Under the pieces are notes generated by a model. The model was not told the origin of the DNA. It saw only the letters and a list, made by a program, of their open reading frames with translations, and made no database searches. DNA of 64,000 bases from Desulfuromonadales bacterium (lineage in GTDB: Bacteria; Desulfobacterota; Desulfuromonadia; Desulfuromonadales; JACZKF01): the NCBI GenBank assembly GCA_050485365.1, contig JBJHBH010000003.1, positions 4,127-68,126 on the forward strand, given 5' to 3'. This document shows, one piece after another, positions 1,025 to 23,810 of the stretch; the stretch's first letter is position 1; each line of letters opens with the position of its first letter. A program made the translations under genes and the position numbers.

Positions 1025-2170
1025 TTACGGCACCCTCCGCTGCCCTTTGGCCGTGTGGCAGGCGAAACACCCCTTTCCTTCGGCATCGCCGGCGTCGCCG
1101 GACACCATTCTGCGGAAATCGAAACGCAGCATGCCATCATACGGGCCTGCATGGGCCAGATGGCATGAGAGACACATGACCAGATCCTGGCCCGGGAAGA
1201 CCTGATCGCTGGGCTCGTCATAGACCCAGGGTCTGGCCACCGGCGCGGTCACCTCGTAGAAGATGTATTCGGCGTATTCTCCCCGATCGGGAAGGACGAA
1301 ATCAGAGGGGTGCCTCAGGAAAGCCAATGTGACGGGGAGTCGTTGGGTATGAAAGTCACCGTGGCAGGTCATGCAGAAACCGCTCATGCTGTTCCGCGGA
1401 GTGTCTATATAAGAATAGGGAGTCGCATTGGTGGAACCGTAATGGCAGGTCGAACAGTGTTGATCGTCGGAAGGACGGTGAGGGGCTCCGAAATATTCGT
1501 TGTGAATCATGGGGGTGACATTCTGCCACCGGTCGGGATAGGGATAGGGGTTTTCGAGCCCACGCACCCCCATTAGAAAGCGGAAGCTGTTGGCGACCAT
1601 ATCGGCCACCTTCAAGGCTCCGTCTTCATTGGCGTGATGAGCGCCGATGATGGCACTCATCCCGACACGATGAACCAGTCTCCCCTCACTGTCCTCCATC
1701 AATTGGTTTCTTAGCCCGTGACAGCCGCTCGCGCCGGCACAGGTGAGCCTGTTCTTGAAATAGATGGGGTTTTCCCCATGCACGAAGCCGGGGGGGAAAA
1801 TGAGGACATCGTCTCCACCGGGGAATATGTCGATGACGTCGTGCCCTTTTCGGCTCCCCGGCACGCCGACGCCCAGCTTGGCACCGGAGATGTAAGCGAA
1901 ATTCCCGCCGGCCAGGTCCCCCCGGCTGTCGGTGTGATACACCTGAGGGACCTGAGTTCCCCCAGGCATGATCACAATTCGCTCGTCTATTCCCAACGCA
2001 TGACAGGTGACACAGTCGACCCCCCACAGATACCCGGAAGAATCTTCTATGGCGCTGTCGGTGTGGCAATCGATGCAGTTATCCCCGATCTGAGCCAGAG
2101 CAACGTGAGAAAGAAGAAAGAACCATGCCGCGGCGACAGCACACAAACTCCATTTCACCGTCTTTTGCAT
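1025..2170 (-). CDS. OmcS-family multiheme c-type cytochrome, divergent paralog
   Basis: Signal peptide, six CXXCH motifs (CIDCH, CVTCH, CSTCH, CMTCH, CLSCH, CFACH) and one CX5CH (CAGASGCH). It shares blocks with the other three paralogs and with OmcS as I remember it: SRKGHDVID, FLRHPSD, MCLSCHLAHAGPYDGMLRF and a C-terminal CFACHTAKG. SD GGAGGA lies 4 nt before the ATG. Confidence 0.8.
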   Translation of the reverse strand: MQKTVKWSLCAVAAAWFFLLSHVALAQIGDNCIDCHTDSAIEDSSGYLWGVDCVTCHALGIDERIVIMPGGTQVPQVYHTDSRGDLAGGNFAYISGAKLGVGVPGSRKGHDVIDIFPGGDDVLIFPPGFVHGENPIYFKNRLTCAGASGCHGLRNQLMEDSEGRLVHRVGMSAIIGAHHANEDGALKVADMVANSFRFLMGVRGLENPYPYPDRWQNVTPMIHNEYFGAPHRPSDDQHCSTCHYGSTNATPYSYIDTPRNSMSGFCMTCHGDFHTQRLPVTLAFLRHPSDFVLPDRGEYAEYIFYEVTAPVARPWVYDEPSDQVFPGQDLVMCLSCHLAHAGPYDGMLRFDFRRMVSGDAGDAEGKGCFACHTAKGQRRVP

Positions 2171-2173
2171 CAG

Positions 2174-2295
2174 ATCCTCCGGGGAAAATGTCCTTTTCTC
2201 CGGGAACCCGGCCGTCCGCCTACGCGCAAGCTTCGACGGACCCGTCGGCTTTGTGCCCCCACCTTACGATGGGTTTACCTTTTCGGAGGATGACT
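2174..2295 (-). promoter_or_regulatory. Candidate GEMM-I (c-di-GMP-I / cGAMP class) riboswitch in the 5' UTR of the OmcS-type gene
   Basis: Minus-strand RNA reads AUCCUCCGAAAAGGUAAACC-CAUC-GUAA-GGUG-GGGGCACAAAGCC...GGCGGACGGCCGGGUUCCCGGAG. This matches GEMM-I hallmarks: GGYAAACC, a P1 hairpin capped by a GNRA loop, ACAAAGCC and GCCGGGUUxCC. The 5' strand AUCCUCCG (2291..2284) is exactly complementary to the SD region CGGAGGAU (2181..2174). Confidence 0.55.
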
Positions 2296-2327: not shown

Positions 2328-2355
2328 AGCCTATCTCGTTTTGAGTATCCGTCAA
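2328..2355 (-). promoter_or_regulatory. Possible sigma70 promoter for the riboswitch and OmcS-type transcript
   Basis: On the minus strand, TTGACG (2355..2350), a 16-nt spacer, then TAGGCT (2333..2328). It sits between the upstream terminator and the aptamer. Confidence 0.3.
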
Positions 2356-2375: not shown

Positions 2376-2408
2376 TGAAAAAACCGGCCCAAAGAGACAC
2401 GGCCGGTT
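2376..2408 (-). terminator. Rho-independent terminator after the sulfatase-GDPD gene
   Basis: Minus-strand RNA AACCGGCC-GUGUCUCUUUG-GGCCGGUU followed by UUUUUC, about 50 nt after the stop at 2458. Confidence 0.7.
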
Positions 2409-2457: not shown

Positions 2458-5247
2458 TTATTCCGGCACAAGGAAATCTGTATAAATGCCGTTCACTCCA
2501 AGTTCCTGCAATTCTGTGAACAAATGGGGGTCATTGACCGTGTGGGCGTATACAAAAATGTTCCACGGCTTGATCATCTTGGCCATGCCCATCTGGGCCA
2601 GCCTCCAGTGCATTGTGATGGCAAATGGCTTCTTCTTGGACGAAAAGGACACCAACTGATAGGGATCGAGCTCCATTCGGTAAAGTGTGAGAATGATGTC
2701 GTCATACCCCAACGCTTCAGCTTTCTCATATTCCGCATAGCTGTAGACCTGCGGGATCACATACCCTATGAACTCCCTCCTCTCGCGAATCAATTTTTCG
2801 AGAGCCTTGACGTTTTCGTCCTTGATATCCGTAATGATATACGCATCCCCTTTTTCTCTCGCCCAATCCAATACTTGCGAGATGGTGAGCTGCGTCAGGC
2901 CATTCCTAGGTGTGAGTTGCAAAAACTCATTCTTTGTCAGCACACCTTGATATTTCGGGAGATGGAAGCGCCTTTTGAGCGATTCTTCCCAGTCATGAAT
3001 GGCAACGAGCTCACCATCTTTTGTCCAGGAAAAATCAATCTCGAAGTACCTAAATCCAAGGTCGTAGTTCAGGTTGAGAGCTTCCACGCTGTTGGTATAG
3101 GTCTGATTTTCTATACCTCCGCCAGCATGCGCGACATAGGCTGGTGGAGAGATCCCTCGAGGGGCGGTTAATGATTGCAGGAAACTCTCCCTCTGCTCAA
3201 CAACTCTAAATTCCGTCTCAGCCTTTTTTATCGAAGCAATTGTATCTGCTGGAATAGAAAAACTATCATCGAGGACACCCCAGAGATTTCTGGTACTCCC
3301 GGGTTTGCCGAAAAAACCGCATAACTGTAGGGGATGAACCCGCTCAAAATCGCAAAATCCCGGCAGATTCATTGCGTGACTTATCGCAAAAACCAGATCA
3401 TCTGCATGCTGCAGCAATATACTGCTCAGAGTTGTATTGTCCATCCCTTGGTCAAAGGGGAAGGAATGGATGTCCTTGAGCTTGAGCGTTGTACTGTCGA
3501 AGAGGAAGATCGTCGACGCGATACTTCCAGGAAGCCCCTCAGAGCTTATGTCGAAGATTCTGTTGCCGATCGTTATGCTCAAATCTTCCATATCGACCTT
3601 GAAGTCCATGCCCTCGAGCGACACGTCATCATCCCAGAGCGCTGCAGCGACGGCGTTCAGGGCCGGTGCTTTCTCACGCCATCTCTTTTCTCCGAATTTT
3701 CTGATCAGATACCCCGGAGCCTTCACCAGGGATGACCCGAAACCGAGCTGCCCCTTGAGCTCATAGCCGAGCAGATCGAGGATGGTGGGAGCGACGTCAT
3801 AGTGAATTCCCGGATGGGAATTTTCACCAATGGGACCGTTCGGCACGTTGACGAAGAAAGTCAGTTTTGGGGGGGCCGTCGACTCCTCCAGGAGAGACGA
3901 AGCGGTATTGCGCATGGCCAGATGGTCGCTGAAGACTGCGACGATGGTGTTGTCCGAGAATGGCGAGGACCTGATCCGATGGATGAACCGGCTTACCAGT
4001 TTATCCGCGCAGTGAACTGAATCGAGCATCGGATTGTCTGTCGTCTTAATTTCGCTGCAGGTCGGAGAAAGATGCCCTCTCGGAGGGTGGGTATCCAACG
4101 TCAGCAGTGTCAGCATAAAGGGCTGTTGCTGTGAGCTCAGGGATATGAATTTTTCAAAAGCGAGATCCAGGAGGATATCATCGTAAATACCCCATGAATT
4201 CAACGGAATAGCATCGCCAAGGGTATCGAGAATTTCCTGCCTGTCGATTACTTCGGAATATCCGTGCGACCGGAGGAAATTACCCTTGCCTGCAAATCGC
4301 TCGTCCGCCCCTCCCATATACGCCAGATGGTATCCGTCTGTTGTGAGGAGATCTCCCAGGCAGACGGCCCCTGGCATGAAACTGTCGTAAATTCCGAAAC
4401 TATTCCCCTTTATATTGTGTCCCCCCGCAAGTGGGTATCCGCACTGGGAGGCCACAAAACCACCCATCGTCCACCCGGCACCGACCCCCTGGGCAACACG
4501 GCTGAAGACCAGGGACTCGTCCTTAATTCGTTTCAGTTCAGGGAGAAGTCCAGGGAAAACCGCTTCATCAAAATACCGCTGCTCAATACTCTCCAGATAA
4601 ATCAGAACGAGATTGTATCGATCGGCTCCCTTGAACGAAGCGTTTACACTACCTGTCAGTTCCGGAAATTCGTCATATGCCAGGGAAGATCCATTTAATC
4701 TAGCAGACTGCATATGTTCGAACAGGGAACCAGCGGGAGGCGAGATCAAAATCCCGGAGAGAAAAAGCGCCAAACAGCCGTACCCATACCTTCCGTTTCG
4801 GTTAAGGCTCCTGTGGATTTGAAAGCAGGAAGTGGATATGTAAAGCAGAAAAGCTATAACCAGGAGGACGATGGGAAGAGTAAATTCGCCCAACCCTGAA
4901 TGGAGCAGATCGGGGCGAAGATGGTAGAAAAAAGCCTCGTTGAACCCGGCGTTCTGCAGATAATAGCTGGCAAGAAAAGCACCTTCCATAACAAAAAGTG
5001 CTGTGCCGAGAAGAATGAAAAAGAGCAGATTCACACGTCTTCGGGGGAAGTTCGAGAACGCGTATATCAGGCCTGCTGTATACATGAGGACCGAGATCGG
5101 CCAGATTAGCGGGGCATCCGTTGATGCAATGCCGAAAAGGCTTAAATAAAATGGAAAGCCTGACCCAGCGAGAGTCCAAATCTCTTCTTGTGAATATCTG
5201 ATCCCTAATGCCGAGAGACGTAATTGTGTCAACTTTCTATCCTCCAC
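2458..5247 (-). CDS. Membrane-anchored sulfatase-family phosphotransferase (OpgB/MdoB/LtaS-like) fused to a C-terminal GDPD-like phosphodiesterase domain
   Basis: 929 aa. The N-terminal ~170 aa are hydrophobic multi-pass. The central domain has an LTLDTHPP nucleophile-type motif typical of LtaS/OpgB sulfatase-fold enzymes. The C-terminal ~250 aa (AHAGGGIENQTYTNSVEAL..FRYFEIDFSWTKDGELVAIHDWE) resemble glycerophosphodiester phosphodiesterase. GC content is low. Confidence 0.65.
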   Translation of the reverse strand: MEDRKLTQLRLSALGIRYSQEEIWTLAGSGFPFYLSLFGIASTDAPLIWPISVLMYTAGLIYAFSNFPRRRVNLLFFILLGTALFVMEGAFLASYYLQNAGFNEAFFYHLRPDLLHSGLGEFTLPIVLLVIAFLLYISTSCFQIHRSLNRNGRYGYGCLALFLSGILISPPAGSLFEHMQSARLNGSSLAYDEFPELTGSVNASFKGADRYNLVLIYLESIEQRYFDEAVFPGLLPELKRIKDESLVFSRVAQGVGAGWTMGGFVASQCGYPLAGGHNIKGNSFGIYDSFMPGAVCLGDLLTTDGYHLAYMGGADERFAGKGNFLRSHGYSEVIDRQEILDTLGDAIPLNSWGIYDDILLDLAFEKFISLSSQQQPFMLTLLTLDTHPPRGHLSPTCSEIKTTDNPMLDSVHCADKLVSRFIHRIRSSPFSDNTIVAVFSDHLAMRNTASSLLEESTAPPKLTFFVNVPNGPIGENSHPGIHYDVAPTILDLLGYELKGQLGFGSSLVKAPGYLIRKFGEKRWREKAPALNAVAAALWDDDVSLEGMDFKVDMEDLSITIGNRIFDISSEGLPGSIASTIFLFDSTTLKLKDIHSFPFDQGMDNTTLSSILLQHADDLVFAISHAMNLPGFCDFERVHPLQLCGFFGKPGSTRNLWGVLDDSFSIPADTIASIKKAETEFRVVEQRESFLQSLTAPRGISPPAYVAHAGGGIENQTYTNSVEALNLNYDLGFRYFEIDFSWTKDGELVAIHDWEESLKRRFHLPKYQGVLTKNEFLQLTPRNGLTQLTISQVLDWAREKGDAYIITDIKDENVKALEKLIRERREFIGYVIPQVYSYAEYEKAEALGYDDIILTLYRMELDPYQLVSFSSKKKPFAITMHWRLAQMGMAKMIKPWNIFVYAHTVNDPHLFTELQELGVNGIYTDFLVPE

Positions 5248-5259
5248 TACATTGAATTC

Positions 5260-7311
5260 TCAATTGCTAACTAGCTCTTCCGAGATATTTCTGACTCTCA
5301 GAACCCTCGCAACCGGCCAGGCATTATAAATCTCCTCAAAGTAGCGCCGATCGTAATTGCCTAGGATGTACTGCTGGTTGAAGTTGCTCCAGAAGAGGCG
5401 GTCTTCGACTATCTGGATCTGAATTATCTCATTGTTCGCAATGAGGATCTGCAAATAATATCGAGCATTAGGGTGAAAGTCCTCCCTGGTGGTCACCTGC
5501 CCATCCTTGATAATCAACACTGCGACGAGGGGAACGTCTATAGTACCGTCGCTGATAATCCCCCGGTTTAGATCTGCAATTCCTTCTTGGCATTTGAATT
5601 TATTTCCGACGAGGGAAAAGCAATTCCATTGCTCATACCACATCATTTGATCAACCCGCTCTTCGAAGTCCCAAGTTCCGAAAGTGGATATCGATCCGAA
5701 TTTTGAAATCATGTCTTCGGTATAGAGGACATGAACTTTCTCTACGGTGAGATGCCCGGGGTAAGAAAAGACCATTCTTTTCAGATTCTCCCCCGATAAA
5801 TTTTCATCCACAATGAGAGAGTACAGCGAATCAAAACCGTTCTCCTCGACGTAAGAAAGCATAGAGACCATCTCCTCCTGTCGAGGAGAGGTCATCGTCT
5901 TGGCGATCAGTGTAGTTCGCAGTCCTCCATGAAGTGCTCCATCGTGATAGGTGGCGAACTGCCCGATTTCCATCAAGGGGTACCCCATATCCCACCAAGT
6001 GAACATGGCCGAGTGTTTGGGAACGAGTTGCTTGATTTCCAGGATCGCGCGTGTCGTAGATGCCGGGACGATAGCCGAAGGTTGACGATCGAATCCGGTA
6101 TGTACCGCGGTAGAGAAAAAGAGCATGAGCATGAGAGAAACAGTAGCGAAAGTGCCGTACATTGGTTTCAGTCGGATTTTCGCTCCGACCCTATTCACCA
6201 GGAGTTCAATCAACACTCCAACACCGATTCCGATGAAGGGGGCCAGATACATAGCGAACCGTCTGGGGCCAAAAAGCGACCAGAGCCCAAGGAGGATCAG
6301 CGGAGTGATGGGAATCATCTGCCGGAAGCGAAATATGTAGAGACAACAAAGCCCTACAAAGCCGGCCAAAACAATGGGGAGAAATCCGTGAATGTTTTTG
6401 AGCGCCTCCAAGGGGTCATTAATCCTCTGAGCCTCCTCGATCAAGGCCATCACGTTCGGCCAGACGATCTGCCCGGATGGGGAAGGGAAGAAATAAGCCT
6501 GGATAAAGATAGATAGTGAATTGACGCTCTGCGCTGCATAACCTGGGCCCGAAGCCAGTGTGAATACCAGCAATATTCCTAAAATCTGCCGCCATGGCAT
6601 GCAAATCGACAACAGGTATGCAGCTATGAAAAAGAGATAGACCAGCATGAAGCCCGGCTGTTCATACCACCAATTGAACAGATACATCATCGCGCCGGCG
6701 CCGGCGGCCAAACCGAGGTTTGCGCGGACGGATCGAGCGCTACTCATTGGCAGAGTGAAACAAGCCACTGCTAGAGGGAAGAAAATATTCAGTAAGTCGG
6801 TATCTAGATAGCCCATCCAACTTCGTTGGTAATAGGCCACACTGAAAATGCCGATCAATCCGCCCAGAACCGCCGCAGCCCCAAAACCTAACCTGTGGAA
6901 ATAAAAAAAGAGGGGAAAGATGAAAAGTCCACCCAGAATTGAAACGAGCAGCAGTCCGGAACGGTAATAATCGCCCCCAGTGAAGTTCGCGCAAAAGCTG
7001 ACAAGCCAGGCCAGCAGGTTGGGGTCGAAATATTCGATCAGATCGGGATACCCCTTTGTGGGATTGAGTAAACCCTTTCCGAGGTTACCTGCATCGAGAT
7101 CCCGAGCCATCTTCAGCCAGTGGTAGGCATCCATGGACGACATGGCCGTCACATGGCCCACAAAGTATTCATCTCCCTGCACCATCCATTGCTGGTAGCT
7201 CTCTTCTTTCTTGTAGACAGAGAGTCCATAAACAACCAGAACAAACGCGAAGACTACCAGGGTTGTCCGGTTGTTCAGAATTAGAATTCGCAAATCACCC
7301 ATAGTCCTCAC
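5260..7311 (-). CDS. PglB/STT3-type oligosaccharyltransferase
   Basis: 683 aa and polytopic. The motifs occur in the PglB order: SSMDAYHWLKMARD (cf. NDGYAFAEGARD), YLDTDLL (DxD), ALIEEA (TIxE-like loop) and FTWWDMGYP (WWDxG). A soluble C-terminal domain follows. Low GC. A 12-nt gap to the next gene suggests an operon. Confidence 0.7.
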   Translation of the reverse strand: MRTMGDLRILILNNRTTLVVFAFVLVVYGLSVYKKEESYQQWMVQGDEYFVGHVTAMSSMDAYHWLKMARDLDAGNLGKGLLNPTKGYPDLIEYFDPNLLAWLVSFCANFTGGDYYRSGLLLVSILGGLFIFPLFFYFHRLGFGAAAVLGGLIGIFSVAYYQRSWMGYLDTDLLNIFFPLAVACFTLPMSSARSVRANLGLAAGAGAMMYLFNWWYEQPGFMLVYLFFIAAYLLSICMPWRQILGILLVFTLASGPGYAAQSVNSLSIFIQAYFFPSPSGQIVWPNVMALIEEAQRINDPLEALKNIHGFLPIVLAGFVGLCCLYIFRFRQMIPITPLILLGLWSLFGPRRFAMYLAPFIGIGVGVLIELLVNRVGAKIRLKPMYGTFATVSLMLMLFFSTAVHTGFDRQPSAIVPASTTRAILEIKQLVPKHSAMFTWWDMGYPLMEIGQFATYHDGALHGGLRTTLIAKTMTSPRQEEMVSMLSYVEENGFDSLYSLIVDENLSGENLKRMVFSYPGHLTVEKVHVLYTEDMISKFGSISTFGTWDFEERVDQMMWYEQWNCFSLVGNKFKCQEGIADLNRGIISDGTIDVPLVAVLIIKDGQVTTREDFHPNARYYLQILIANNEIIQIQIVEDRLFWSNFNQQYILGNYDRRYFEEIYNAWPVARVLRVRNISEELVSN

Positions 7312-7576: not shown

Positions 7577-8968
7577 ATGAAAAAACTGAATGTCCTCTGG
7601 AGATTTTTCGCATCGGTTAAGCTGGCCCTGTTCACGATCTTTCTGCTCGCCGGCACCTCGATCATCGGGACGGTCGTCCAGCAGGGGCAGGCTCCAGCCC
7701 ATTACGTCGAGGAGTACGGTGAGACGCTGGCCCGCGTCTTTCAGCTCCTCGACATTCCGACCATGTACAGCTCCTGGTGGTTTATCACCCTGCTGACCCT
7801 TTTCGCCGTGAATCTCATCGTCTGCAGCATCGAGAGGCTCCCCGCCTCCTGGCGCATGGTGACGCATGAATCGCGCGCGCCCGACTATGAGCGCCTGGAA
7901 AAAATGAACTCGAAGCACCGGGCGGACACCGCCCTGCCGACAGGCATCGTGGCTACGAGAATGCAGGAGCTTCTATCGGCTGCCGGGTGGCGCAAGAGCA
8001 CGCGACTGGAGAGGGATGGCTCAACCGTCCTCTTCGCCCAGCAGGGCGCCTGGACCCGATTCGGCGCGCACATCGTCCATCTGAGCATTCTGGTGATCTT
8101 TGCCGGTGTTCTGATCGGAAACCTTTTCGGCTTCAAAGCGTACGTCTTCCTCCCGGAGATGAGGGCGACGACCAACATATTCCTGCAGAGCAATCGCGAG
8201 CCCGTCCCCCTCGATTTCGAGCTCTACTACGAACGGTTCGAAATGGCTCTCTACCCCGACGGATCGATCCGCGAGTACCGCTCCGAGCTGACGGTGTACG
8301 ATCCGCAGCGCGCGCAGCCGTACGAAAAGACCTCCATCGTCAACGACCCGCTCAGATACAACGGAATCGCCTTTTACATCGCCGACAACTATCCCCTCGA
8401 GGAGTATTTCATTACCATTCAAAACCGAACCACCGGCGAAAAGCAGTCCTTTCGCGTCCCGCCGGATTATCTGGTCACATGGCCGGAAACGGAGATTTCC
8501 TTCAGCATCGAAGAGCTCAGGCAAAACCAGGAAGGGGCGACGCAGCAGGCAAAAATCTCGTTCTCCGACGGTTCCGGCTCCGACCCGTCGGTCTTCTGGA
8601 TGAACAACAAAGGGACGGTGACGATAAAAGGGCCTGGGGACGAATTCACATTTTCATTCCACCAGCTCTACACCACCCTCTTCCTGGCCAACAAAGACCC
8701 CGGAGTCATGGTCGTTTATGCTGGATTTTTCCTGATGGTCATCGGCCTCTGCATCAGCTTTTTCCTCTCCCACCAGCGGATCTGGGTGTACATCGCCCCC
8801 AAGGAGCAGGGATCGCGGATCCTGGTCAGCGGACTCAGCAACAAGCACCAGCCCGCTTTCGAGCGCCGTTTTCAGGAACTCATCGCCCGAATCAAGCAGG
8901 ACGAGCCGATCGTCACAACGGTGCCGAAAGCGGCCAAGCCGCTAAAGAAGCGCCGTGCGGCTGCTTGA
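7577..8968 (+). CDS. resB: Cytochrome c biogenesis protein ResB/Ccs1 (System II)
   Basis: The N-terminus MKKLNVLWRFFASVKLALFTIFLLAGTSIIGTVVQQ is typical of ResB. It is followed by a large periplasmic domain and C-terminal TM helices. No resC/ccsA is adjacent. Confidence 0.85.
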   Translation: MKKLNVLWRFFASVKLALFTIFLLAGTSIIGTVVQQGQAPAHYVEEYGETLARVFQLLDIPTMYSSWWFITLLTLFAVNLIVCSIERLPASWRMVTHESRAPDYERLEKMNSKHRADTALPTGIVATRMQELLSAAGWRKSTRLERDGSTVLFAQQGAWTRFGAHIVHLSILVIFAGVLIGNLFGFKAYVFLPEMRATTNIFLQSNREPVPLDFELYYERFEMALYPDGSIREYRSELTVYDPQRAQPYEKTSIVNDPLRYNGIAFYIADNYPLEEYFITIQNRTTGEKQSFRVPPDYLVTWPETEISFSIEELRQNQEGATQQAKISFSDGSGSDPSVFWMNNKGTVTIKGPGDEFTFSFHQLYTTLFLANKDPGVMVVYAGFFLMVIGLCISFFLSHQRIWVYIAPKEQGSRILVSGLSNKHQPAFERRFQELIARIKQDEPIVTTVPKAAKPLKKRRAAA

Positions 8969-9143: not shown

Positions 9144-10397
9144 CTAGAACCTCCCCCCATGATGATGGCAGTCCCGGCACGAGACGACCTCCCAGTCGTC
9201 GCCGGGGCCGAGATAACCGGGTTCGCCGTGAAGCTGGGTTATGTAGTCCCGGTTATGGCAACGGACGCAGAGCGGCAGCAGATTGTTCGGCGCCGTCGCG
9301 GTGATGGTCTCACCGAGATTTCCACCGTTGACACGGCGCCGCAGGAGCATGATGTTCTGCGATCCGTGCGGCTCATGGCAATCGAGGCATGACATAACGA
9401 AATTGTTCTTGGTCGAAGAAGCCGCAAGATAGGGCTCGGCCCACCGGGGAGTCTCGTAGCTGTACGGATGCCCCTCTCTCGGGCGGGCGCCGTGCTTGTC
9501 CTGATTCTCTCCGGTCGTCCCCCAGTTGATCCTGCGCAGATTGCGGTTCAGGGTCGTGCTCCAGATGGTATTTGCGGGGTTGTGGCATTCGGTGCAGAAG
9601 CCGACGTAATCCGGCGTCTTGGCCCCGTCCGCGTCGCCGACGCCGGCCGGCTCACGGCTGAGATCGAAGACGTAGGGCGCCTCGTAGGAGAGGTACGAAG
9701 CCATCAGCTCCGTTTCTCCCCAGAGCCGTGAGCGATCGCTCGGTTTTGAGATGGCGCTCAGCAGGGGGAAGCCCGGCTTTGAACTGTCCCCGTTGCGCCT
9801 CGCGAGATGGGGATTGTGGCAGGCACTGCAGGGGTTGCTGTGCTCATCGAACCACGGGTAGGCCGTGTTGGTTCGAGCGTAGTTCCAGATGTCGAAGAGG
9901 TTGTGGTATGACTCCTGATTGAACGCCTCCAAAATAGACTGCGGACCGCTTCCGGACGCAGCCCCCCCGAACGTCGCGCTGTAATCCTGATTTATCACCT
10001 GCTGACCCGAGTCGCCGCTGTGACAGAAGAAACAGAAGTTGTCCGTCTCCATATAGAGGTTCTGGGTGCGTGCCGAATTGAAATTGCGATAGAAGAGTAC
10101 GTAAGGTGCCCCCCCGCTTAAGGGTTGCGGCGCCGCGCCGTCGAAGCTGGCGTGCATCTGGTGGCAGTGGGCGCAGTTGCCTGTGGCATACTCAGCGAAT
10201 CTCGGCTCGATGGCAGAGCGGTTTACGCCGTGCATCCCGTCGCCGTGGGCCGAGTTGCGGTACGTCCCCCCCCAGAGCGGTGCGGCGACAACGAGTCCGA
10301 GCATTGCGGCGAAGAGCGTGATGACGATCGCGCGACCTGATCCGACCTTGTCGCGCAGAAATGGCCGCCCGATCTTCGAAGCGTTACGATGATCCAT
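9144..10397 (-). CDS. Multiheme c-type cytochrome, 7 CXXCH
   Basis: I place the start at MDHRNASKIGRPF (10397) with a TM/signal segment AIVITLFAAMLGLVVAAP. Motifs are CAHCH, CFFCH, CSACH, CTECH, CLDCH, CVRCH and CRDCH. The first motif is CHQMH. The start overlaps the upstream stop by 14 nt. The longer track ORF (to 10814) is read-through of the upstream gene. Confidence 0.8.
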   Translation of the reverse strand: MDHRNASKIGRPFLRDKVGSGRAIVITLFAAMLGLVVAAPLWGGTYRNSAHGDGMHGVNRSAIEPRFAEYATGNCAHCHQMHASFDGAAPQPLSGGAPYVLFYRNFNSARTQNLYMETDNFCFFCHSGDSGQQVINQDYSATFGGAASGSGPQSILEAFNQESYHNLFDIWNYARTNTAYPWFDEHSNPCSACHNPHLARRNGDSSKPGFPLLSAISKPSDRSRLWGETELMASYLSYEAPYVFDLSREPAGVGDADGAKTPDYVGFCTECHNPANTIWSTTLNRNLRRINWGTTGENQDKHGARPREGHPYSYETPRWAEPYLAASSTKNNFVMSCLDCHEPHGSQNIMLLRRRVNGGNLGETITATAPNNLLPLCVRCHNRDYITQLHGEPGYLGPGDDWEVVSCRDCHHHGGRF

Positions 10398-11766
10398 CGC
10401 TCTGCCCCTCTGCGTCATCGCCGAAATCGGCCGGTGGGAATTCTTCGACAATCTCCTCGACGATCTCTTCACCTTCAAAATCGTCGTCGCTCGTCGGAGC
10501 GTCCTCTTCAGGCATCGCTTCAACCGCCTCACTCTCCTCCCCTGATTGTTGCGCAGGGGGCGGCGGCGCTGAGAAGAGGGGGAATTCCGGAATGTAATCG
10601 ACGTCCAGGACCTGCACTCTGCGGTTGAAGAGGTCGGAGACGATGAGCTGCCCCTCCCGGTTGATGGCGAGATCCGAGGGGAAATTGAACCAACCCGGCG
10701 CCTCCCCCCGACCGCCGACTTCGAACTGGAATCTTCCCGACAGATTGTAGGCGAGAATGGTGTGGCGCATGAAATCGGCCACGTAAATAAGGCCGCGCTC
10801 CTCATCAATAACAAGGCCGCGGGGCTGACTCAGCCTGCGGGGGCCTCCCCCCTTTTCACCAAAGGAAAAAAGGAACGTCTCATCGGCGCTGTAGACATAG
10901 ACCTTGCTCGTTTCGGCGCTGACCAGATAGAGATTGCCGGCCCTGTCGATGACCACATTGCGCACCCTGACGGGGCCGAGGCCGGGGCCGGATCGAGCTT
11001 CTTCTTCCTGCTGACGGCTTCTGGGACGAAACTCTTCGGGGATATCGCCTCGGGATCTCTGCCTGGCTTCGATTTCGTCCTCCAGAGCCTTCTTATCCTG
11101 CTGCGCCGCAAGCCGTTCGGCCGCGGCGGCGACCGCCTCGCGATCGGCGATGACATCCATCGGCTCAAGCATGCGAAGAAAGGTTCCGTCGCCGTCGAGT
11201 ACGATGACCCCCCTGCTCGATTCGCCCGTCAGGTAGATCAGCCCGTCGCGGCTCACCGCCAGCTTGCCGGGAGAGAAATTTGCGAGATTGGGGATGTCGT
11301 CGAGCAAAATCTCCCGGTCGACAAAAAAAGCGGCATTCAGGATGGTGATGCGGGGGGTCGGGTTCGCCGCCGAGCGGCTCTGGGTGACGTAGACTCTGCC
11401 GTCCGGCGCTACATGCATTCCTCGGGGGGCGAAAACGCCGCGTCCGGCTCCGATCGATACGCGAGGGTAAAAGTCCGGCCCGTAGACCACCACCCGGGCG
11501 CTGCCGCCATTGACGAGATAGATTTCCTCCTCGATCGGATCGTAAAAGACGGACGAAGGATAGTTCAGTAACCGTCCATCGTCATCCGTGGTGATCTGCG
11601 CGATGGAGATGGCCGGATAGGACGCCAGGCCCGGCGCCGGAGCGAAAAAGGCGAGCAGGCACAGCACAAAAGCCCCCAAACCCAAGAGGCGCCGGCCGCG
11701 ATTCCGTGACTCAAAAGGGCTGTGACCCCTTCTCTCGGCTCTATCTGTGACATCGACTGCAGACAT
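10384..11766 (-). CDS. NHL-repeat beta-propeller protein with a charged insert and an acidic C-terminal tail
   Basis: Signal/TM segment LLGLGAFVLCLLAFFAPAPGLA. NHL-type blades include GRVYVTQ, GLIYLTGE, GNLYLVSAE, GLIYVADF and GQLIVSDLFNRRVQVLD. The tail reads EESEAVEAMPEEDAPTSDDDFEGEEIVEEIVEE. I prefer the start MSAVDV at 11766 (GGGGAGG upstream); the alternative is 11814. Confidence 0.75.
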   Translation of the reverse strand: MSAVDVTDRAERRGHSPFESRNRGRRLLGLGAFVLCLLAFFAPAPGLASYPAISIAQITTDDDGRLLNYPSSVFYDPIEEEIYLVNGGSARVVVYGPDFYPRVSIGAGRGVFAPRGMHVAPDGRVYVTQSRSAANPTPRITILNAAFFVDREILLDDIPNLANFSPGKLAVSRDGLIYLTGESSRGVIVLDGDGTFLRMLEPMDVIADREAVAAAAERLAAQQDKKALEDEIEARQRSRGDIPEEFRPRSRQQEEEARSGPGLGPVRVRNVVIDRAGNLYLVSAETSKVYVYSADETFLFSFGEKGGGPRRLSQPRGLVIDEERGLIYVADFMRHTILAYNLSGRFQFEVGGRGEAPGWFNFPSDLAINREGQLIVSDLFNRRVQVLDVDYIPEFPLFSAPPPPAQQSGEESEAVEAMPEEDAPTSDDDFEGEEIVEEIVEEFPPADFGDDAEGQSDGSS

Positions 11767-12945: not shown

Positions 12946-14406
12946 TCACTCCAGTCCCGCTAGCCCCAACGGCCGCGCACCGAGGTGGACCCACCCGATA
13001 AGCTGGTTGACGTTGGAGTCGACCACGGCCAGGGCGCCCGCCTTTTCGTCACCGACGTAGAGTCTGCGATAGGCCCGATTGAAGGCCATCTCCAGCGGCC
13101 GTCCAAGTCCGTGAATCTCCCTGACGACTCCAAGCTGCCCCGGGAACAGGACGGAAACCGTCCCATTCTCGTAATTGCTTACGTAAATCTGGTCTCCATT
13201 GAAGAGAAAACGGCGTGGTCCGAAGCCGACATCGAGGCGTCGCTGAAGCTGATTGGCGGAAAAATCATAAATCGCCACGGAGTGATCACCTCTTTCGGCG
13301 ATATAGAGTTCCCTGCCAACCATGAGCAGCCCCTCCGGAGAGTTTCCGGTGCGAATCGCTCTAACCTCGCGCAGATCGGTCGGGCTGTGGAGGGTGACGG
13401 TCTGAGTGAGTTCCGCCGAGACGGCGAGAAGATTCGCATCATGCAGAAAAGTCGCATAGGTGGGGCGATACCCGAGTCGCTCGCGTCCGGCACTTCGGCC
13501 GCTGCCCAAATCGATCTGATTGAGATAGCTGTTGCGCTCCTCCAATACATACGCCCAGCGACCGTCCGGACTGATCGTCATAAAGGTCGGGATCTCTGTC
13601 AGAGGGATGTGAATGAAATCGACAACCCTTTGGGACAGTAGATCGACTGTTTTTATGGCCGACTCCCCGGATGCGAGCACGTAGAGGCGCCTGCGGGAAG
13701 GATCGGGGTCCATGGCCAGATAGGTCGGCTGCCCCTTGATCCCGAACGAGTCGGCCACCCAGTTCTTGTCGCTTCGGATCACGAAAACAGTGTCGATCTC
13801 CGGGCAGGCGACATAGACCAGATCGACGAGCAGTTGCCTGAGCTCGAAGGCGAGCGTCATCACCGGGTGCATGATCTCAGGCTGATTGAGTGTTTCACGC
13901 ACATCCCAGGTGATAAATAGACTGCGGCTATCGTTTTGTGACAGGGAAAGGACAGAGGGAAATGCGATCTCGACCCGCGTCGACAGAGCAGCGAAAGATT
14001 CATATCGACCGTCGCCTTTACGCACCGCGCTGCCCGTCACATCGAAGCGCAGACGGTGGTAATCCCCTGGTCGAAGCGAGCGCCCTCCGACAAAGACCTG
14101 AGCAGCGCCAATCTGCGCGGAATCGAGGTTCTGCGGCCCCGAGTCGATGGGGAGCCAGACCCCTGCGGTGAGAATTTCAATGGCGGCGATCTCCAATTGC
14201 ACATCCGGACCGTCCGCTTCCTTGAGGTTCAGGAAGAGGCTGATACGGGCGCCGTCGTCGCCGTCGCGAGAAATCTCCGCCATAGGCCACGTCGGCGTCG
14301 ACGTCTTAAACCCCGCCTGGCAGCCCACCAGAAGCAAGGCCGAAAAGAGCAGCACCAGGTGAGAAATGATCTGATTGGAGATTTTCTTCCCAGCTCCCAA
14401 TTCCAA
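12946..14406 (-). CDS. Lipoprotein: DUF4382-like N-terminal domain plus YVTN/YncE-type beta-propeller
   Basis: Lipobox LLLVGC. The N-terminal part has the pattern VFVGGRSLRPGDYHRLRFDV..VEIAFPSVLSL. Repeated blades follow: LYVLASGESAIKTVDL, AYVLEERNSYLNQIDL, LYIAERGDHSVAIYDF, IYVSNYENGTVSVL and LYVGDEKAGALAVVD. Confidence 0.7.
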   Translation of the reverse strand: MELGAGKKISNQIISHLVLLFSALLLVGCQAGFKTSTPTWPMAEISRDGDDGARISLFLNLKEADGPDVQLEIAAIEILTAGVWLPIDSGPQNLDSAQIGAAQVFVGGRSLRPGDYHRLRFDVTGSAVRKGDGRYESFAALSTRVEIAFPSVLSLSQNDSRSLFITWDVRETLNQPEIMHPVMTLAFELRQLLVDLVYVACPEIDTVFVIRSDKNWVADSFGIKGQPTYLAMDPDPSRRRLYVLASGESAIKTVDLLSQRVVDFIHIPLTEIPTFMTISPDGRWAYVLEERNSYLNQIDLGSGRSAGRERLGYRPTYATFLHDANLLAVSAELTQTVTLHSPTDLREVRAIRTGNSPEGLLMVGRELYIAERGDHSVAIYDFSANQLQRRLDVGFGPRRFLFNGDQIYVSNYENGTVSVLFPGQLGVVREIHGLGRPLEMAFNRAYRRLYVGDEKAGALAVVDSNVNQLIGWVHLGARPLGLAGLE

Positions 14407-14418
14407 ACTCCTTAAAAA

Positions 14419-15510
14419 TCAATCCTTCGTCGTATGACAAACCGCACAGCCGTTGAAGGCGGGCTGCCCCGTATGCGGATCGTTCCCCGGCCACGAGCGA
14501 TATCCCCATCGCATCATGGCCGGATAGGGCGAGCCGTGGGGCCGATGGCACGAAACACACGCGACCAGATCGGATCCTCGATTGATATTGGAAAAATTCG
14601 CGTCTTCTCCGGTCACATTCTGGCGCGCCACAGGGACCATGGGGTTGTAGGTGGAGAATTCGGTGAATTCCCCGGCATCCGGTATCGAGAAATCGACGGG
14701 GTGACGGATCCATGCGGCGTTGGCCGTCGTTTCGCTGTGAAACCGTCCATGGCAGCCGGCGCATTTTTGGTTGATGGAGCCGGTTTCGAGATAGCTCGAA
14801 AAAGATCCGGCCTTCCCCTGATAGACGTTATGCTTGTTGGGGTGGGGATTTTGTTCCCAATCCGGGTCCTCGATCCCACTTACCCCTTCCGGTGGCGGCA
14901 CAGGTCCTCCGTCCCGCTGCATCACCGATCCCAGGAACCGGTACCACCCCTCTTCTCTTCCCGCGACGGCGCTGTTGCCGTCGGCATGATGGTGCGGGAC
15001 GTGGCAGCCGTTACAGCCGCTCTGTGCCGTCGCCAACGTTCCGTGACAACTCGTGCAGTCCTCGGCGCGGGCGGCCCCTCCGGGTGCCCACGAAAACCTG
15101 GAATCATGGCTGGCGATGCCGTGAACATTGTGGCCGAACTGATCCCCCTGGAGGACCCAGTGAAAGTTCCCCCCCGCCAGAGCCGAAGTGCTCGATCCGT
15201 CGGGGGGGTATGTCGGTTCGGTCAGGTTGAAAACGATGGGGACCCGCGAATCCCCCAGCGGGACGATCGTCTCCGGACCTGCATGGCTGTGACATCCGAC
15301 GCAGTCGGTCTTGAGCAGTTTGCCAAAGGCCTCGTTCCGGGAGACCCTCTGCCCGGTGCTGTCGAGGGAGAAAGCGACCACCCTCCCCTGCTCGCTGTTG
15401 TGCATCGTATGGCAATCGGAGCACAGCCCCTGAACCGCCCCGTCGCAAAGGATGGGCGTGACCGCGGTCGCGGCGAGTAGGCCCATGGCTATCCAATTGC
15501 GAAGGTGCAT
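14419..15510 (-). CDS. OmcS-family multiheme cytochrome, 7 CXXCH
   Basis: Start MHLRNWIAMGLLAATAV (15510). Motifs are CSDCHTMHNSE, CVGCH, CTSCH, CNGCH, CAGCH, CVSCHRPHGSPYPAMMRW and a C-terminal CAVCHTTKD. Also IRHPVDF. Collinear with the other paralogs. Confidence 0.8.
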   Translation of the reverse strand: MHLRNWIAMGLLAATAVTPILCDGAVQGLCSDCHTMHNSEQGRVVAFSLDSTGQRVSRNEAFGKLLKTDCVGCHSHAGPETIVPLGDSRVPIVFNLTEPTYPPDGSSTSALAGGNFHWVLQGDQFGHNVHGIASHDSRFSWAPGGAARAEDCTSCHGTLATAQSGCNGCHVPHHHADGNSAVAGREEGWYRFLGSVMQRDGGPVPPPEGVSGIEDPDWEQNPHPNKHNVYQGKAGSFSSYLETGSINQKCAGCHGRFHSETTANAAWIRHPVDFSIPDAGEFTEFSTYNPMVPVARQNVTGEDANFSNINRGSDLVACVSCHRPHGSPYPAMMRWGYRSWPGNDPHTGQPAFNGCAVCHTTKD

Positions 15511-15611
15511 TCCGAGACCCTTAAAGCGAGGACGGAGGACAGAGGACGGAAGACAGCAAGACCTGCATCCACGAGTCCAAGTTCCACACAGCAAAACAAC
15601 GGACAACTTGC

Positions 15612-15667
15612 GGCCGCGAAGCGGCCTGACACCGCGAAGCGGTTGACGCCGCTTTAGCGGCCTGACA
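15612..15667 (-). repeat. Three tandem short GC hairpins with a repeated GCGGCCTGACA; probable terminator or processing site
   Basis: GGCCGC-GAA-GCGGCC, CCGC-GAA-GCGG and GCCGC-TTTA-GCGGC. GCGGCCTGACA occurs at 15621 and 15657. The element lies directly after the stop of the NHL gene. Confidence 0.35.
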
Positions 15668-16555
15668 TCAACGGCTGAAGACCTCTACCCGTCCGTTCCC
15701 CTCATCGACCACGCAGAGCCGCCCCCATGGATCGAAGCGGATCTGCCGGGGGAAGTGGAGCTGTCCCCTTGCATGACCGGGGCCGAGAAAGCGGTAGCGG
15801 AAGCCACCGTCCTGGCTGTAGGCCAGGATGCTGCTCTTGTGACGATCGAGGACATAGAGAAAACCGGGACCGACGGCGAGGGAAACAGGAAAGTCGACCT
15901 GCTCGCCCAAGCTGATGTTTCTCGCCACGGTGCCGTCCGAGCGGAAGCGGATGACCCTCTTCCCCCGGGTCTCCAGCGCCCAGACTTCCCCTTCGGCGAC
16001 GACGAAGTCGCTGAGCCCCGCCGGACTTCGGGGGTCGCCGAAGCGCTGCTCCACCGTCAGGTCGTCTGACAGGCGAAGAACCTGGCCGCTGGCGCGGTCG
16101 AGAACGAACAGCTTATTCCCGTCATGGGCGATGCGGTCTGGGAAGATCTGCCGTCTGCCATCGCGCAGCACGAAAGGCTTCACCTCGCGGGCGGCGAGGT
16201 CGATGCGGGTGATGCTGTTGCGCCCCTTCTCCACCACCCAGAGACGACCGTCATCGAGACGCACCATGTCGAAGGGAGCCTTCAGCCGGTCGTCTGCGGT
16301 AAAGGCCCGAAGCATCTCGCCGTCGCGCCCGAAGGAGACGAGACGGTTTCGGCCCGCGTCGACGGCATAGTAGCGCTCGGCATCCATGTCGAACGCCACC
16401 GCCGCCGGCATGTACATGGCGTTGCCGGGGGTGTCGATCTTCAGGCTCATCTGCCATTGCCAGGGCGACTGGGCCAGGGCAGCGACCGGCAGCAGAGAAA
16501 AGATCGCCGCCAGTAAAAACCACTTCAGAGGTCGTATTGATATGTCATTCCTCAT
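15668..16555 (-). CDS. Secreted NHL-repeat beta-propeller protein
   Basis: Signal peptide MRNDISIRPLKWFLLAAIFSLLPVAALA. Repeated blades include YYAVDAGRNRLVSF, LWVVEKGRNSITRIDL, LFVLDRASGQVLRL, VWALETRGKRVIRF, LYVLDRHKSSILAY and LCVVDEGNGRVEVF. Confidence 0.75.
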   Translation of the reverse strand: MRNDISIRPLKWFLLAAIFSLLPVAALAQSPWQWQMSLKIDTPGNAMYMPAAVAFDMDAERYYAVDAGRNRLVSFGRDGEMLRAFTADDRLKAPFDMVRLDDGRLWVVEKGRNSITRIDLAAREVKPFVLRDGRRQIFPDRIAHDGNKLFVLDRASGQVLRLSDDLTVEQRFGDPRSPAGLSDFVVAEGEVWALETRGKRVIRFRSDGTVARNISLGEQVDFPVSLAVGPGFLYVLDRHKSSILAYSQDGGFRYRFLGPGHARGQLHFPRQIRFDPWGRLCVVDEGNGRVEVFSR

Positions 16556-16581
16556 GCGCTATCCCCATATGTGTTTCGTAG

Positions 16582-16655
16582 GGGCGGACCCCTGTGTCCG
16601 CCCTTTGCGGGAATCTTCTTACGCCGGTGAACAGGGCAGGCACAGGGGCCTGCCC
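16582..16655. repeat. Pair of GC-rich hairpins (REP-like)
   Basis: GGGCGGAC-CCCTGT-GTCCGCCC (16582-16603) and GGGCAGGC-ACAGGG-GCCTGCCC (16634-16655), between the 16-heme gene stop and the NHL gene start. Confidence 0.5.
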
Positions 16656-16693
16656 CTACCAACTCCTAACTCCCAACTTCTGGCTCCTGCTTC

Positions 16694-17881
16694 TCACCGA
16701 TTCCTGTGGCACTGCACGCACAGGTCGCGGGTCCCTCTGAATCTGAGATGGTTCTCGTACTCGGTCCCCTTGCTCGTGTGACAGCTCGCGCAGGTCATCA
16801 TCTGGCCGGTTCGCGGGTCGTAGACCGTCTCTCCGATCGGATGGGTGAACTGCTCGTGAGTCACATGGCAGGTGACGCAGACGCTGTTGATGGGTCCTTT
16901 GGCCATTGCCGGGTGATTGGAGCCGTGCGGCGCATGGCAGTCGCTGCACGAGGTGTGCTCCTCGTGCTTGAAGCGCGCATCCTCCATCCGCCGGAAGGTC
17001 GCATCATGACAGGTGCCGCAGACGTGGCGCTCCTTGCCTTTGAGCAGACTCTTCTTGTCGCCTGCGTGGGGCGAATGGCACGCAATGCAGCCGTTGCTGC
17101 CGAAGCGCACCAGATGATTGTGGGACGATGCCATCTGATCGCCGACCTGTGGATGGCAGGCGAGGCAGGTGTCGACGGTGACCGGCTCGTTCCGTCCACT
17201 GTGACAATCCCTGCAGCCGCCGGCGAAGGGCTCGTGCAGTACGTTGCGTATGAGCCCGGGGCGGTTGCTGCCGTGGGGACTGTGGCACGAGCCGCAGTTG
17301 CCGAGATCGGCGGGAAAGTTCGGGTGTTTCTGCCGCACCGAGGCCGCAGAATGGCAGTTCAGGCAGAGCGACTCCTGATCCCTGACCAGCAGATAGGGGT
17401 TTGACGACTGGTGAACTTCATGGCAGGAGGTGCACTGCCCCCGCGCATATGGCGTATGGGTGTTGCGATACTTTCTCGGCAGATCGCTGTGGCAGTCGAA
17501 GCACGTCTCGGAGAGCCGCTTTCCGAGAAGCCCAGGATGATCCGACGCGTGGGGATCGTGGCAGGAGAGACACTCCCCCCGCCGCACCGGCTGATGGACG
17601 ATCCCCTTGCCGTGCTTCTGCGCCGCGCCGGTATGGCACGAGTAGCACAGGCTTTTCACTTCCTGCTGGAGCAGGCCGGGGTACTTGGCCACATGGGGGC
17701 TGTGGCAGGAGGCACAATCGCCGCGAGAGGCGGGCTGGTGCTTCACCCTCTTCTGAAAGGTGCTTCGCTCATGGCAGGAGAAGCAGTCCACGGCGAGGGC
17801 CGCCCCCTGCGCCGCCAGAAAGAGGACGAGGGTCGAGATCGAAACCAGAGCGAATCGCACGAATCGATGTAATGACATCAT
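16694..17881 (-). CDS. Multiheme c-type cytochrome, 16 CXXCH
   Basis: Signal peptide ..LVLFLAAQGAALA. I counted 16 CXXCH motifs, many as paired CxxCH..CxxCHxPH units. ATGA start/stop overlap with the upstream gene at 17878-17881. Confidence 0.85.
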   Translation of the reverse strand: MMSLHRFVRFALVSISTLVLFLAAQGAALAVDCFSCHERSTFQKRVKHQPASRGDCASCHSPHVAKYPGLLQQEVKSLCYSCHTGAAQKHGKGIVHQPVRRGECLSCHDPHASDHPGLLGKRLSETCFDCHSDLPRKYRNTHTPYARGQCTSCHEVHQSSNPYLLVRDQESLCLNCHSAASVRQKHPNFPADLGNCGSCHSPHGSNRPGLIRNVLHEPFAGGCRDCHSGRNEPVTVDTCLACHPQVGDQMASSHNHLVRFGSNGCIACHSPHAGDKKSLLKGKERHVCGTCHDATFRRMEDARFKHEEHTSCSDCHAPHGSNHPAMAKGPINSVCVTCHVTHEQFTHPIGETVYDPRTGQMMTCASCHTSKGTEYENHLRFRGTRDLCVQCHRNR

Positions 17882-21452: not shown

Positions 21453-22153
21453 TGTTTGAGTCCTTGTCTTAACCAGAGGTTGATGATTTCCCGGGCAACC
21501 TGTTGATTGAGGCCGGTAACGGTATGGATCGTGCCGAAGTGCATTGCTTTTCGATAATCGGTCCCTTGCCGCTGATGGTATGTGCTCCAGAGGACATCGC
21601 CGCTGCCGGCGTCGCGGATCTGAATGTTCAAGGCGAGAACCGGGTTGACGCTGCCATGCTCGCCGGGGTTCTCTCGCGTCTCGATGACATTGCCGGTGAT
21701 CAGCAGCTGGGCGCCGAGGCGCCCCCCCAGCAGCTTCAACTGCTCGGGGTTGAGGGACGTCCCCGGCAAAAGCCGCAGGTGCTGGTACACCTTCAGAACA
21801 TCTCCTTCCTGGGCCAGGTGATAGTTCCCCGCCCCGGCGAATTCGGTCAGAAAGACCTTGTAAGCGATACTGTCAGCGAGAGGAAAATCCGCTTCATTCA
21901 CAAACGGCAGCACTGCAACGCGGCATATGGAGCCTTCAGGCAAAGGAGCTATTTTCGTGTGATACGGGAAGGAGCCCTGCTTCGCCGCACAGCCCGAGAA
22001 AGCAAAAGCGAGAATCAGAAGGAGAAGAGAGTGGAGCAGTTTTGAATTGAAAGCGCTCACGCCCTGAACCTCGTGCCTTTGGCCTGGTGCCTCAAGCCTT
22101 TCTCCCGGCCCCTTGTTCCCGTCCCCTGGAGACTGCCAGTTGTCAAAACTCAT
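21428..22153 (-). CDS. Lipoprotein with an LpoB/DUF799 (GNA1162)/PelC-like fold signature
   Basis: Lipobox AFSGC. Motifs are RVAVLPFVNE, LGAQLLITGNV and ALNIQIRDAGSGDVLW. The start is uncertain: ATG 22153 overlaps the upstream gene by 11 nt, and GTG 22059 is an alternative. Confidence 0.5.
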   Translation of the reverse strand: MSFDNWQSPGDGNKGPGERLEAPGQRHEVQGVSAFNSKLLHSLLLLILAFAFSGCAAKQGSFPYHTKIAPLPEGSICRVAVLPFVNEADFPLADSIAYKVFLTEFAGAGNYHLAQEGDVLKVYQHLRLLPGTSLNPEQLKLLGGRLGAQLLITGNVIETRENPGEHGSVNPVLALNIQIRDAGSGDVLWSTYHQRQGTDYRKAMHFGTIHTVTGLNQQVAREIINLWLRQGLKQCDVSSRF

Positions 22154-23654: not shown

Positions 23655-23708
23655 GCGCTCTCAACCCCTTTAACCCCTCAGCCTCAGATCCACTGTAAGT
23701 TTTTCCGC

Positions 23709-23810
23709 AATGCATCCCCTCCCTTTGGAAAGAGGGGGAAGGGGGGGGATTTCTTGCGAGCAACCTCAGGCAAATCCCCCTAATCCCCCTTTGTTAAAGG
23801 GAGACTTGGC
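23709..23810. mobile_element. MITE-like GC-rich hairpin element flanked by a 9-bp direct repeat
   Basis: TTTTTCCGC occurs at 23700-23708 and 23811-23819 and brackets 102 nt. The enclosed sequence contains the hairpins CCCCTC..GAGGGG and CCCTTT-GTT-AAAGGG. The ends are partly inverted (CTCCCTTT / AAAGGGAG). Confidence 0.45.

Follow-up and report, generated by a model that had tools for sequence, protein, structure and literature searches.

A class I c-di-GMP riboswitch aptamer with a predicted translational ON platform ahead of an OmcS-like multihaem cytochrome gene

In this work, we have analysed the leader of a multihaem cytochrome gene on the minus strand of a 64,000-nucleotide stretch of bacterial DNA (the whole stretch is called the window here). 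Our results show that this leader carries an RNA that is a bona fide member of the c-di-GMP-I (GEMM-I) class. We propose, with a probability of about 0.62, that the leader is a class I c-di-GMP riboswitch that acts on translation, is turned on by its ligand, and uses the 5' strand of the closing helix of the aptamer (P1) as its anti-Shine-Dalgarno (anti-SD) strand; the ligand and the direction of switching (ON) are what we infer from alignments and predicted folds. The element had been noticed in a first-pass annotation made from the letters of the sequence, and our analysis confirms that observation and supports the interpretation it was given.

The first-pass annotation had recognised a GEMM-I layout by eye, and each aptamer element that it listed, like the SD and the start codon, was found in place on direct reading of the minus strand. 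The parts of the aptamer are as follows.

2198-2289, minus strand: c-di-GMP-I (GEMM-I) aptamer, matched by RF01051 and by our own model R1
2279-2272, minus strand: GGUAAACC box, read directly
2273-2268 with 2263-2258, minus strand: first hairpin helix, CCCAUC/GGUGGG, read directly
2264-2267, minus strand: GNRA tetraloop GUAA capping the first hairpin, read directly and placed by the Rfam alignment
2254-2247, minus strand: ACAAAGCC, read directly
2241-2235 with 2220-2214, minus strand: second hairpin, GUCCGUC/GGCGGAC, read directly
2212-2203, minus strand: GCCGGGUUCC, read directly
2198-2202, minus strand: CGGAG, the P1 3' strand, an SD mimic, read directly

The covariance-model search bore out the class assignment. 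The match to RF01051 (2198-2289, minus strand) scored 54.5 bits against a gathering score of 35, with an E value of 6.9e-8, and spans model positions 1-87, which is the full length. The scan, to which this E value refers, covered the whole 64-kb window with 4227 families, and RF01051 was the sole family to reach its gathering score, with this single hit. A covariance model of our own (R1), built on the first aptamers found among related loci, gives 82.1 bits for the window aptamer. The interhelical C44-G83 pair, universally conserved in the class (PMC4744006), is present as C2255 and G2212 at the Rfam consensus positions.

With the same model we searched 172 related loci. The aptamer lies directly upstream of orthologues of the window gene in L002 (same sequence as L165-167), L163, L164, L168, L169 and L171, whose proteins share 55-64% identity with that of the window, and also ahead of further OmcS-like paralogues in L094 and at the second gene of L170; aptamer and expression platform thus recur in eight further metagenomic loci, each time before an OmcS-like cytochrome gene that is an orthologue or a paralogue. 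It was also found in L029, L078 and L068. Among 12 distinct related aptamers, 95.8% of the cells of 18 pairs are paired and 8 pairs are changed on both sides, in an alignment that was fitted to the model and so somewhat favours the structure in these statistics; helices slid out of register gave 37-47% pairing, and none of 500 shuffles reached the observed value. The loop of the first hairpin is GCAA or GUGA in the related leaders. P1 itself, formed by CUCCG (2288-2284) and CGGAG (2202-2198), is a 5-bp helix beside the ligand pocket, and it shows compensatory changes to CUCCA/UGGAG in L164 and CCUUCG/CGAAGG in L170, while its pairing is retained in L171 through CUUCC/GGGAG. These P1 changes were read by eye from alignment A4 and not counted by the pair-counting tool, because the MAFFT whole-leader alignment (A2) misplaces the P1 register where the length of the A run differs.

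The leader in which the aptamer is embedded is compact, spanning about 120 nt between P1 and the ATG, and contains the following features.

2378-2408, minus strand: terminator-like hairpin AACCGGCC/GGCCGGUU followed by a U run, at the end of the upstream OpgB-like gene, read directly
2350-2355, minus strand: putative promoter-like -35 hexamer TTGACG, read directly
2328-2333, minus strand: promoter-like -10 hexamer TAGGCT, 16-nt spacer from the -35, read directly
2284-2291, minus strand: switching strand AUCCUCCG, comprising the P1 5' strand (CUCCG, 2288-2284) and the anti-SD, from the folding pair list
2179-2203, minus strand: hairpin CCGGAGAAAA-GGACA-UUUUCCCCGG, predicted by folding to capture the 3' P1 strand when P1 is open
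2174-2181, minus strand: SD region CGGAGGAU, with its GGAGG core 5 nt ahead of the ATG, read directly and from folding
2170-2168, minus strand: ATG of the cytochrome gene, read directly
1025-2170, minus strand: regulated cytochrome gene, 381 aa, with signal peptide and six CXXCH, from the ORF and Pfam Paired_CXXCH_1

The promoter-like TTGACG-16-TAGGCT pointed out in the first-pass annotation is present. Both hexamers are there (2355-2328), and the TTGAC motif recurs at a comparable upstream position in the orthologous loci L002, L162, L163, L164, L168 and L173, but the -10 agrees with TATAAT at only 3 of 6 positions, which alone is weak evidence and explains why a consensus scan did not report the promoter. 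A transcription start near 2321 would be implied by these hexamers. The hairpin at 2408-2378, overlooked by the terminator scan because its loop of 10-12 nt exceeds the 8-nt limit, closes the upstream gene, which suggests that the cytochrome gene forms a transcription unit of its own. From the aptamer to the ATG the scan found no terminator-like site (the two sites that it reported fall within the coding region); transcription attenuation was rejected on this ground, and control is most likely translational.

The nine leaders (the window and its eight relatives) share one layout, in which a conserved 5' strand UCAUCCUCCG is followed by the aptamer, the P1 3' strand CCGGAG with an A run, a U run with CC(GG), and the SD. 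The UCAUCCUCC motif is kept in 7 of the 9 and varies to UCAUCUUCC and GUUCCUUCG in the others. In the window, AUCCUCCG has two partners, 2202-2198 (5 bp) or 2181-2174 (8 bp), and the anti-SD pairing of the 5' flank claimed in the first-pass annotation is supported by folding: the ensembles predicted for all nine leaders place the SD in a helix with the 5' flank/P1 5' strand (p 0.53-1.0), and the 8-bp AUCCUCCG:CGGAGGAU helix belongs to the minimum free energy (MFE) structure of the full window leader. Energies predicted for the duplex of 5' flank and SD region range from -12 to -28 kcal/mol (P1: -8 to -13), and in 6 of the 9 leaders this duplex reaches z <= -2 relative to shuffled sequences; in L171 and L170 it did not stand out from shuffled controls (z -0.3 and -1.4). 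Several leaders show an additional predicted pairing, of the far 5' flank (UUUCUGCG) with the first codons (AUGCAGAAG). A further, fourth element of the platform, added here to those of the first-pass annotation, is the hairpin that captures the released 3' P1 strand; its core GAAAA/UUUUC (2198-2194 with 2188-2184) occurs in MFE structures, some folds extend it to a longer stem with flanking C/G pairs, and an equivalent is found in six related leaders (predicted in L163, L164, L168, L169 and L171, by inspection in L002), being absent or rudimentary in L094 and L170.

Lineage-specific covariation between anti-SD and SD was not found, since cognate 5'/3' pairs did not outperform non-cognate ones (the observed mean was reached in 4391 of 20000 permutations), and the helix is therefore supported, at the level of modelling, by conservation and folding energetics, not by covariation. 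Since a CCUCC strand will find a partner in whatever SD is present, some of the signal is unavoidable, and the helix could have arisen as a side effect of the P1 sequence. That the CCUCC strand is there for the SD is argued by two observations: the terminator-type relatives L029 and L078 have no CCUCC in P1, and a 5' CCUCC strand remains paired with the SD, in the predicted fold, in the aptamer-less orthologues of L162 and L173.

We propose the following mechanism. The strand AUCCUCCG (2291-2284) would choose between the CGGAG just 3' of the aptamer and the SD CGGAGGAU, 21 nt further downstream. When no ligand is bound, the longer 8-bp AUCCUCCG:SD helix would win, and the freed CGGAG would enter a small hairpin with the U-rich/CCGG segment before the SD, leaving the ribosome-binding site masked. 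Because the aptamer is transcribed first, c-di-GMP, if present, would bind it and lock P1; the anti-SD strand would then be occupied, SD and start codon would be single-stranded, and the cytochrome would be translated. A constrained fold and the energies of the states agree that every structure that stabilises P1 leaves the SD unpaired. For the window, an explicit ON state was computed at -37.0 kcal/mol and an OFF state that keeps the aptamer helices at -44.9 kcal/mol, a gap of about 8 kcal/mol which in this model could be within reach of pM-nM ligand binding. The MFE of the full-length leader (-61.5 kcal/mol) lies far under the ON state, so that ON would need to be trapped during transcription; the MFE of a nascent transcript ending at 2197 is the aptamer with P1. 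The kinetic trapping of the bound state is assumed, and by analogy with GEMM-I kinetics it is plausible. In the Vibrio cholerae riboswitch Vc2, the length of the closing helix affects ligand binding (PMC11705072), in line with a switching role for P1.

A different masking strand gives the best-surviving alternative, which keeps the aptamer and the ON logic: here the SD would be covered by the 3' half of the aptamer, GCCGGGUUCCCGGAGAAAA (2212-2194) folding on UUUUCCCCGGAGGAUCUG(AUGC) (2188-2167) into one long hairpin, and the ligand would act by holding the 3' strand of P2 in the aptamer. This hairpin, which did not figure in the first-pass annotation, is the MFE structure of a 151-nt construct (2300-2150, -57.1 kcal/mol) and of a transcript ending at 2171, and it takes 0.37 of the pairing probability of the SD in the window and 0.45 in L168. 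Its share is negligible, however, in the other seven leaders (p <= 0.02), its extension onto the SD beyond the CCGGAG/CCGG core is not conserved in L002, L163 and L094 on inspection, and when more 5' context is included the MFE of the window moves away from it to the anti-SD helix. We consider it unlikely, if a serious competitor, and retain the P1 5' strand as the anti-SD.

The ligand, which the first-pass annotation could not call by eye, can be called from three positions.

2279, minus strand: G at the Vc2 G20 position, which recognises the first ligand base (Rfam alignment position 11)
2252, minus strand: A at the Vc2 A47 position, which intercalates between the ligand bases (Rfam alignment)
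2203, minus strand: C at the Vc2 C92 position, which forms a Watson-Crick pair with the second ligand guanine (Rfam model position 83)

The Vc2 numbers were placed on the Rfam consensus by way of the Vc2 sequence. This mapping agrees with the residue roles of G21, G45, G42, C44 and G83 in PMC11705072. Contacts of Vc2 with c-di-GMP are made by G20, A47 and C92 (PMC4744006, PMC5888326), and since these read G2279, A2252 and C2203 in the window, the sequence predicts c-di-GMP rather than cGAMP as ligand. In the 12-aptamer alignment A4, column 12 is G in 12/12, column 39 is A in 12/12 and column 97 is C in 11/12.

It might be argued that the aptamer senses 3',3'-cGAMP, or cGAMP and c-di-GMP both, as do many Geobacter GEMM-I RNAs upstream of cytochrome genes, that of omcST included. 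The gene context is indeed that of Geobacter, where GEMM-Ib riboswitches stand ahead of OmcS/OmcT, PgcA and OmcAHG, and the OmcST riboswitch answers both ligands (PMC6456294); moreover, the top-scoring Rfam model within the clan is a variant family and not the parent. According to PMC6140456 and PMC6456294, however, cGAMP-sensing GEMM-Ib riboswitches carry A20, cGAMP selectivity tracks this residue, and A20G makes a Geobacter cGAMP riboswitch selective for c-di-GMP. Wild-type Vc2, with G20, binds c-di-GMP in the pM range but needs about 10 uM to bind cGAMP (PMC6140456). The A20 signature was not seen here: the position is G2279 in the window and G in that column in all of the 12 aptamers, that is, in the window and its 11 relatives. 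On G20 cGAMP was ruled out as the leading ligand call, and a response to cGAMP, alone or shared, seems to us improbable; c-di-GMP remains the ligand that we predict.

The variant family in question is RF03167 (c-di-GMP-I-GGC), which gave the highest clan score at permissive thresholds, 55.4 bits. Overall its sequence, including a modelled P1, is very similar to that of the window, and its consensus differs from that of RF01051 at a single ligand-site position, right after a short GC/GC helix, where the variant has G and the parent A; the meaning of 'GGC' was deduced by comparing these two Rfam consensus sequences. Membership of RF03167 was rejected, as 55.4 bits is under its own gathering score of 59 and its diagnostic G, at the A47 position, aligns to A2252. 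A departure from the c-di-GMP contacts was observed in L170 (2354-2436, ahead of the second OmcS-like gene), where the C92 column has U in place of C, with G20 and A47 retained (GGGUUGUCGAAGG); this could reflect an altered specificity, for example for an A-containing dinucleotide, or merely a shift of one nucleotide in the P1 register.

Could a functional aptamer act here in another way, as an OFF switch, through Rho-dependent termination or on mRNA stability, instead of through SD masking? Several GEMM-I riboswitches work in ways that are not clear or depart from the usual: neither a terminator nor an anti-SD is evident in Vc1 (PMC4744006), Vc2 masks a distant ribosome-binding site and so represses translation (Inuzuka 2018, cited in PMC11705072), and Vc2 affects RNA stability (bioRxiv 10.1101/617340). 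Against such a mechanism, the only conserved alternative pairings in the nine leaders compete with P1 and involve the SD, and in the constrained fold a stabilised P1 always frees the SD, so we give it a very small chance. That the RNA is a decaying, non-functional relic, as loss of the aptamer from some orthologues (L162, L173, L172 and the first gene of L170) might suggest, is hardly credible, as the conserved core nucleotides and ligand contacts are all intact, the score is 19 bits over the gathering score, and the aptamer is retained with compensatory substitutions in orthologues of only 55-64% protein identity.

The related loci also contain other arrangements of leader and aptamer. In L162 (1390-1518) and L173 (107-234), whose orthologues (64% identity) have no aptamer, a 5' CCCCUCC or GCCUCCUCGG strand pairs with the SD in the predicted MFE, and the leader of the first gene of L170 retains a UUUUCUGCG:AUGCGGAAGA pairing, so that, as far as folding predictions go, the SD-masking hairpin seems to be present whether the aptamer is there or not. 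In other lineages, GEMM-I aptamers lie near homologous cytochrome genes in L029 (3476-3640) and L078 (941-1060), and are followed by intrinsic terminators in place of SD masking. L029 combines a GAAA loop and a CCUAAG receptor-like bulge; in the window clade the loops are GYRA and this bulge is absent.

The regulated gene had been called OmcS-type, and this holds in the sense of a distant relationship. A single-sequence match of the 381-aa protein to OmcS gave an E value of 0.0017, but a 17-member family profile found OmcS (6ef8) in the PDB at E 5e-11 in two collinear stretches (query 30-134 to OmcS 7-134, query 245-357 to OmcS 218-351). 'OmcS-type' is therefore a fair name for what appears from sequence to be a distant homologue of Geobacter sulfurreducens OmcS, not an orthologue. 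An AlphaFold2 model of the cytochrome from a 17-sequence alignment had a mean pLDDT of 33.6, too low for the model to be used. The closest named homologues of the protein come from Desulfurivibrio, not Geobacter, and the host organism is probably not Geobacter. Residues 144-151 (window 1718-1741), between canonical CXXCH sites, form a family-invariant C-A-G-x-x-G-C-H with CX5CH spacing, which might be an unusual seventh haem-binding site.

Immediately upstream, and on the same strand, 2458-7311 encodes two proteins: one of 929 aa, in which an OpgB/LtaS-like sulfatase domain is fused to a glycerophosphodiester phosphodiesterase domain, and an STT3/PglB-like oligosaccharyltransferase of 683 aa. 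These are envelope or glycosylation functions that adjoin the regulated cytochrome. Genes with Lcl_C / Flg_new_2 domains adjoin riboswitch-controlled cytochromes in L001 (4291-7146), which is the window's own contig, and in L163 (744-1268), L164 (1-1114) and L168 (221-784), and are thus a conserved neighbour in the window contig and three orthologous loci. Beyond, from 7577 to 29788, the window holds an island of multihaem cytochrome genes, which includes the following.

7577-8968: candidate ResB/Ccs1 cytochrome c biogenesis gene, judged by its N-terminal sequence
9144-10814: another doubled-CXXCH protein
16694-17881: DmsE-like decahaem protein
17878-19863: 661-aa protein with ten doubled-CXXCH stretches

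By tblastn, the window encodes three OmcS-like paralogues of the regulated cytochrome (14425-15606, 27012-28343 and 28502-29788). The first-pass annotation held that these lack the riboswitch, and we agree: no aptamer was found near them by cmscan at E<=10, and our own model, run with filters off over 14000-31000, gave at most 10.8 bits. A long perfect inverted repeat on the minus strand (30283-30335, GGGAAACGGAGGCGCGA-GGUC-GCGCCUCCGUUUCCC), probably a terminator, comes after the gene at 30337-31713 and before the AT-rich leader of the tandem OmcS-like paralogues.

How does this leader compare with known systems? With the RF01051 riboswitches of Vibrio cholerae (Vc2, Vc1) and Clostridioides difficile (Cd1) it shares the two-hairpin aptamer, P1, the GNRA loop, C44-G83, G20/A47/C92 and a site in the 5' UTR, and Vc2 likewise acts on translation by masking the ribosome-binding site. 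In contrast to Vc2 and Cd1, which are OFF switches, the window switch is predicted to be ON. It also differs from Vc2, Vc1 and Cd1 in that the P1 5' strand is itself the predicted anti-SD and the 3' strand an SD mimic, which would make for a simple strand exchange, in a GUAA loop without the 11-nt receptor bulge, and in its host, an uncultured lineage of the former Deltaproteobacteria. A translational ON switch of comparable logic is the add adenine riboswitch of Vibrio vulnificus, in which a ligand-stabilised P1 competes with a pairing that masks SD and start codon. Aptamer and ligand of add are unrelated to those of the window, and its masking strand comes from the 3' side of the aptamer, whereas the best-supported masking strand in the window is the P1 5' strand.

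The nearest parallel is Geobacter. Cyclic-dinucleotide riboswitches before extracellular cytochrome genes, those of OmcS/OmcT included, are well described there and most sense cGAMP (PMC6456294). The GEMM-Ib riboswitches of pgcA, omcAHG and omcST resemble the window aptamer in their fold and in their targets, which are extracellular multihaem cytochromes (OmcS and its relatives among them), and their ligand turns expression on, as predicted for the window leader. They carry A20 and sense cGAMP (omcST, both ligands), where the window has G20. The characterised pgcA riboswitch works through a transcription terminator (PMC6456294), whereas the window leader has none and is predicted to use SD masking. 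Predicted ligand, control point and host lineage are thus where the window switch differs from the Geobacter ones, and these are variations within a known kind; they leave our understanding of the riboswitch class unchanged, would not surprise a specialist and do not unlock an open question.

What would such a switch mean for these bacteria? As a tentative idea, which we regard as less probable than the riboswitch itself, the leader may be one instance of a modular design, conserved outside Geobacter, for the control of OmcS-like nanowire cytochromes, in which an ancestral 5' CCUCC anti-SD hairpin had a c-di-GMP aptamer inserted between its strands or lost from them, so that the orthologues would range from constitutively masked to gated by a second messenger. 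The compact leader and the clean strand-exchange design would suit it for use as a natural c-di-GMP ON switch for reporters. The presence of the switch on only one of the four OmcS-like paralogues of the island suggests that it is this cytochrome which belongs to a surface-attached lifestyle with high c-di-GMP. The Geobacter link between cyclic-dinucleotide riboswitches and extracellular multihaem cytochromes would be extended to a different, uncultured lineage, with c-di-GMP as predicted ligand and control predicted at translation. If the modular design is real, Desulfurivibrio-like sulfur bacteria would set their capacity for extracellular electron transfer at the level of translation through c-di-GMP, and not through cGAMP as in Geobacter.
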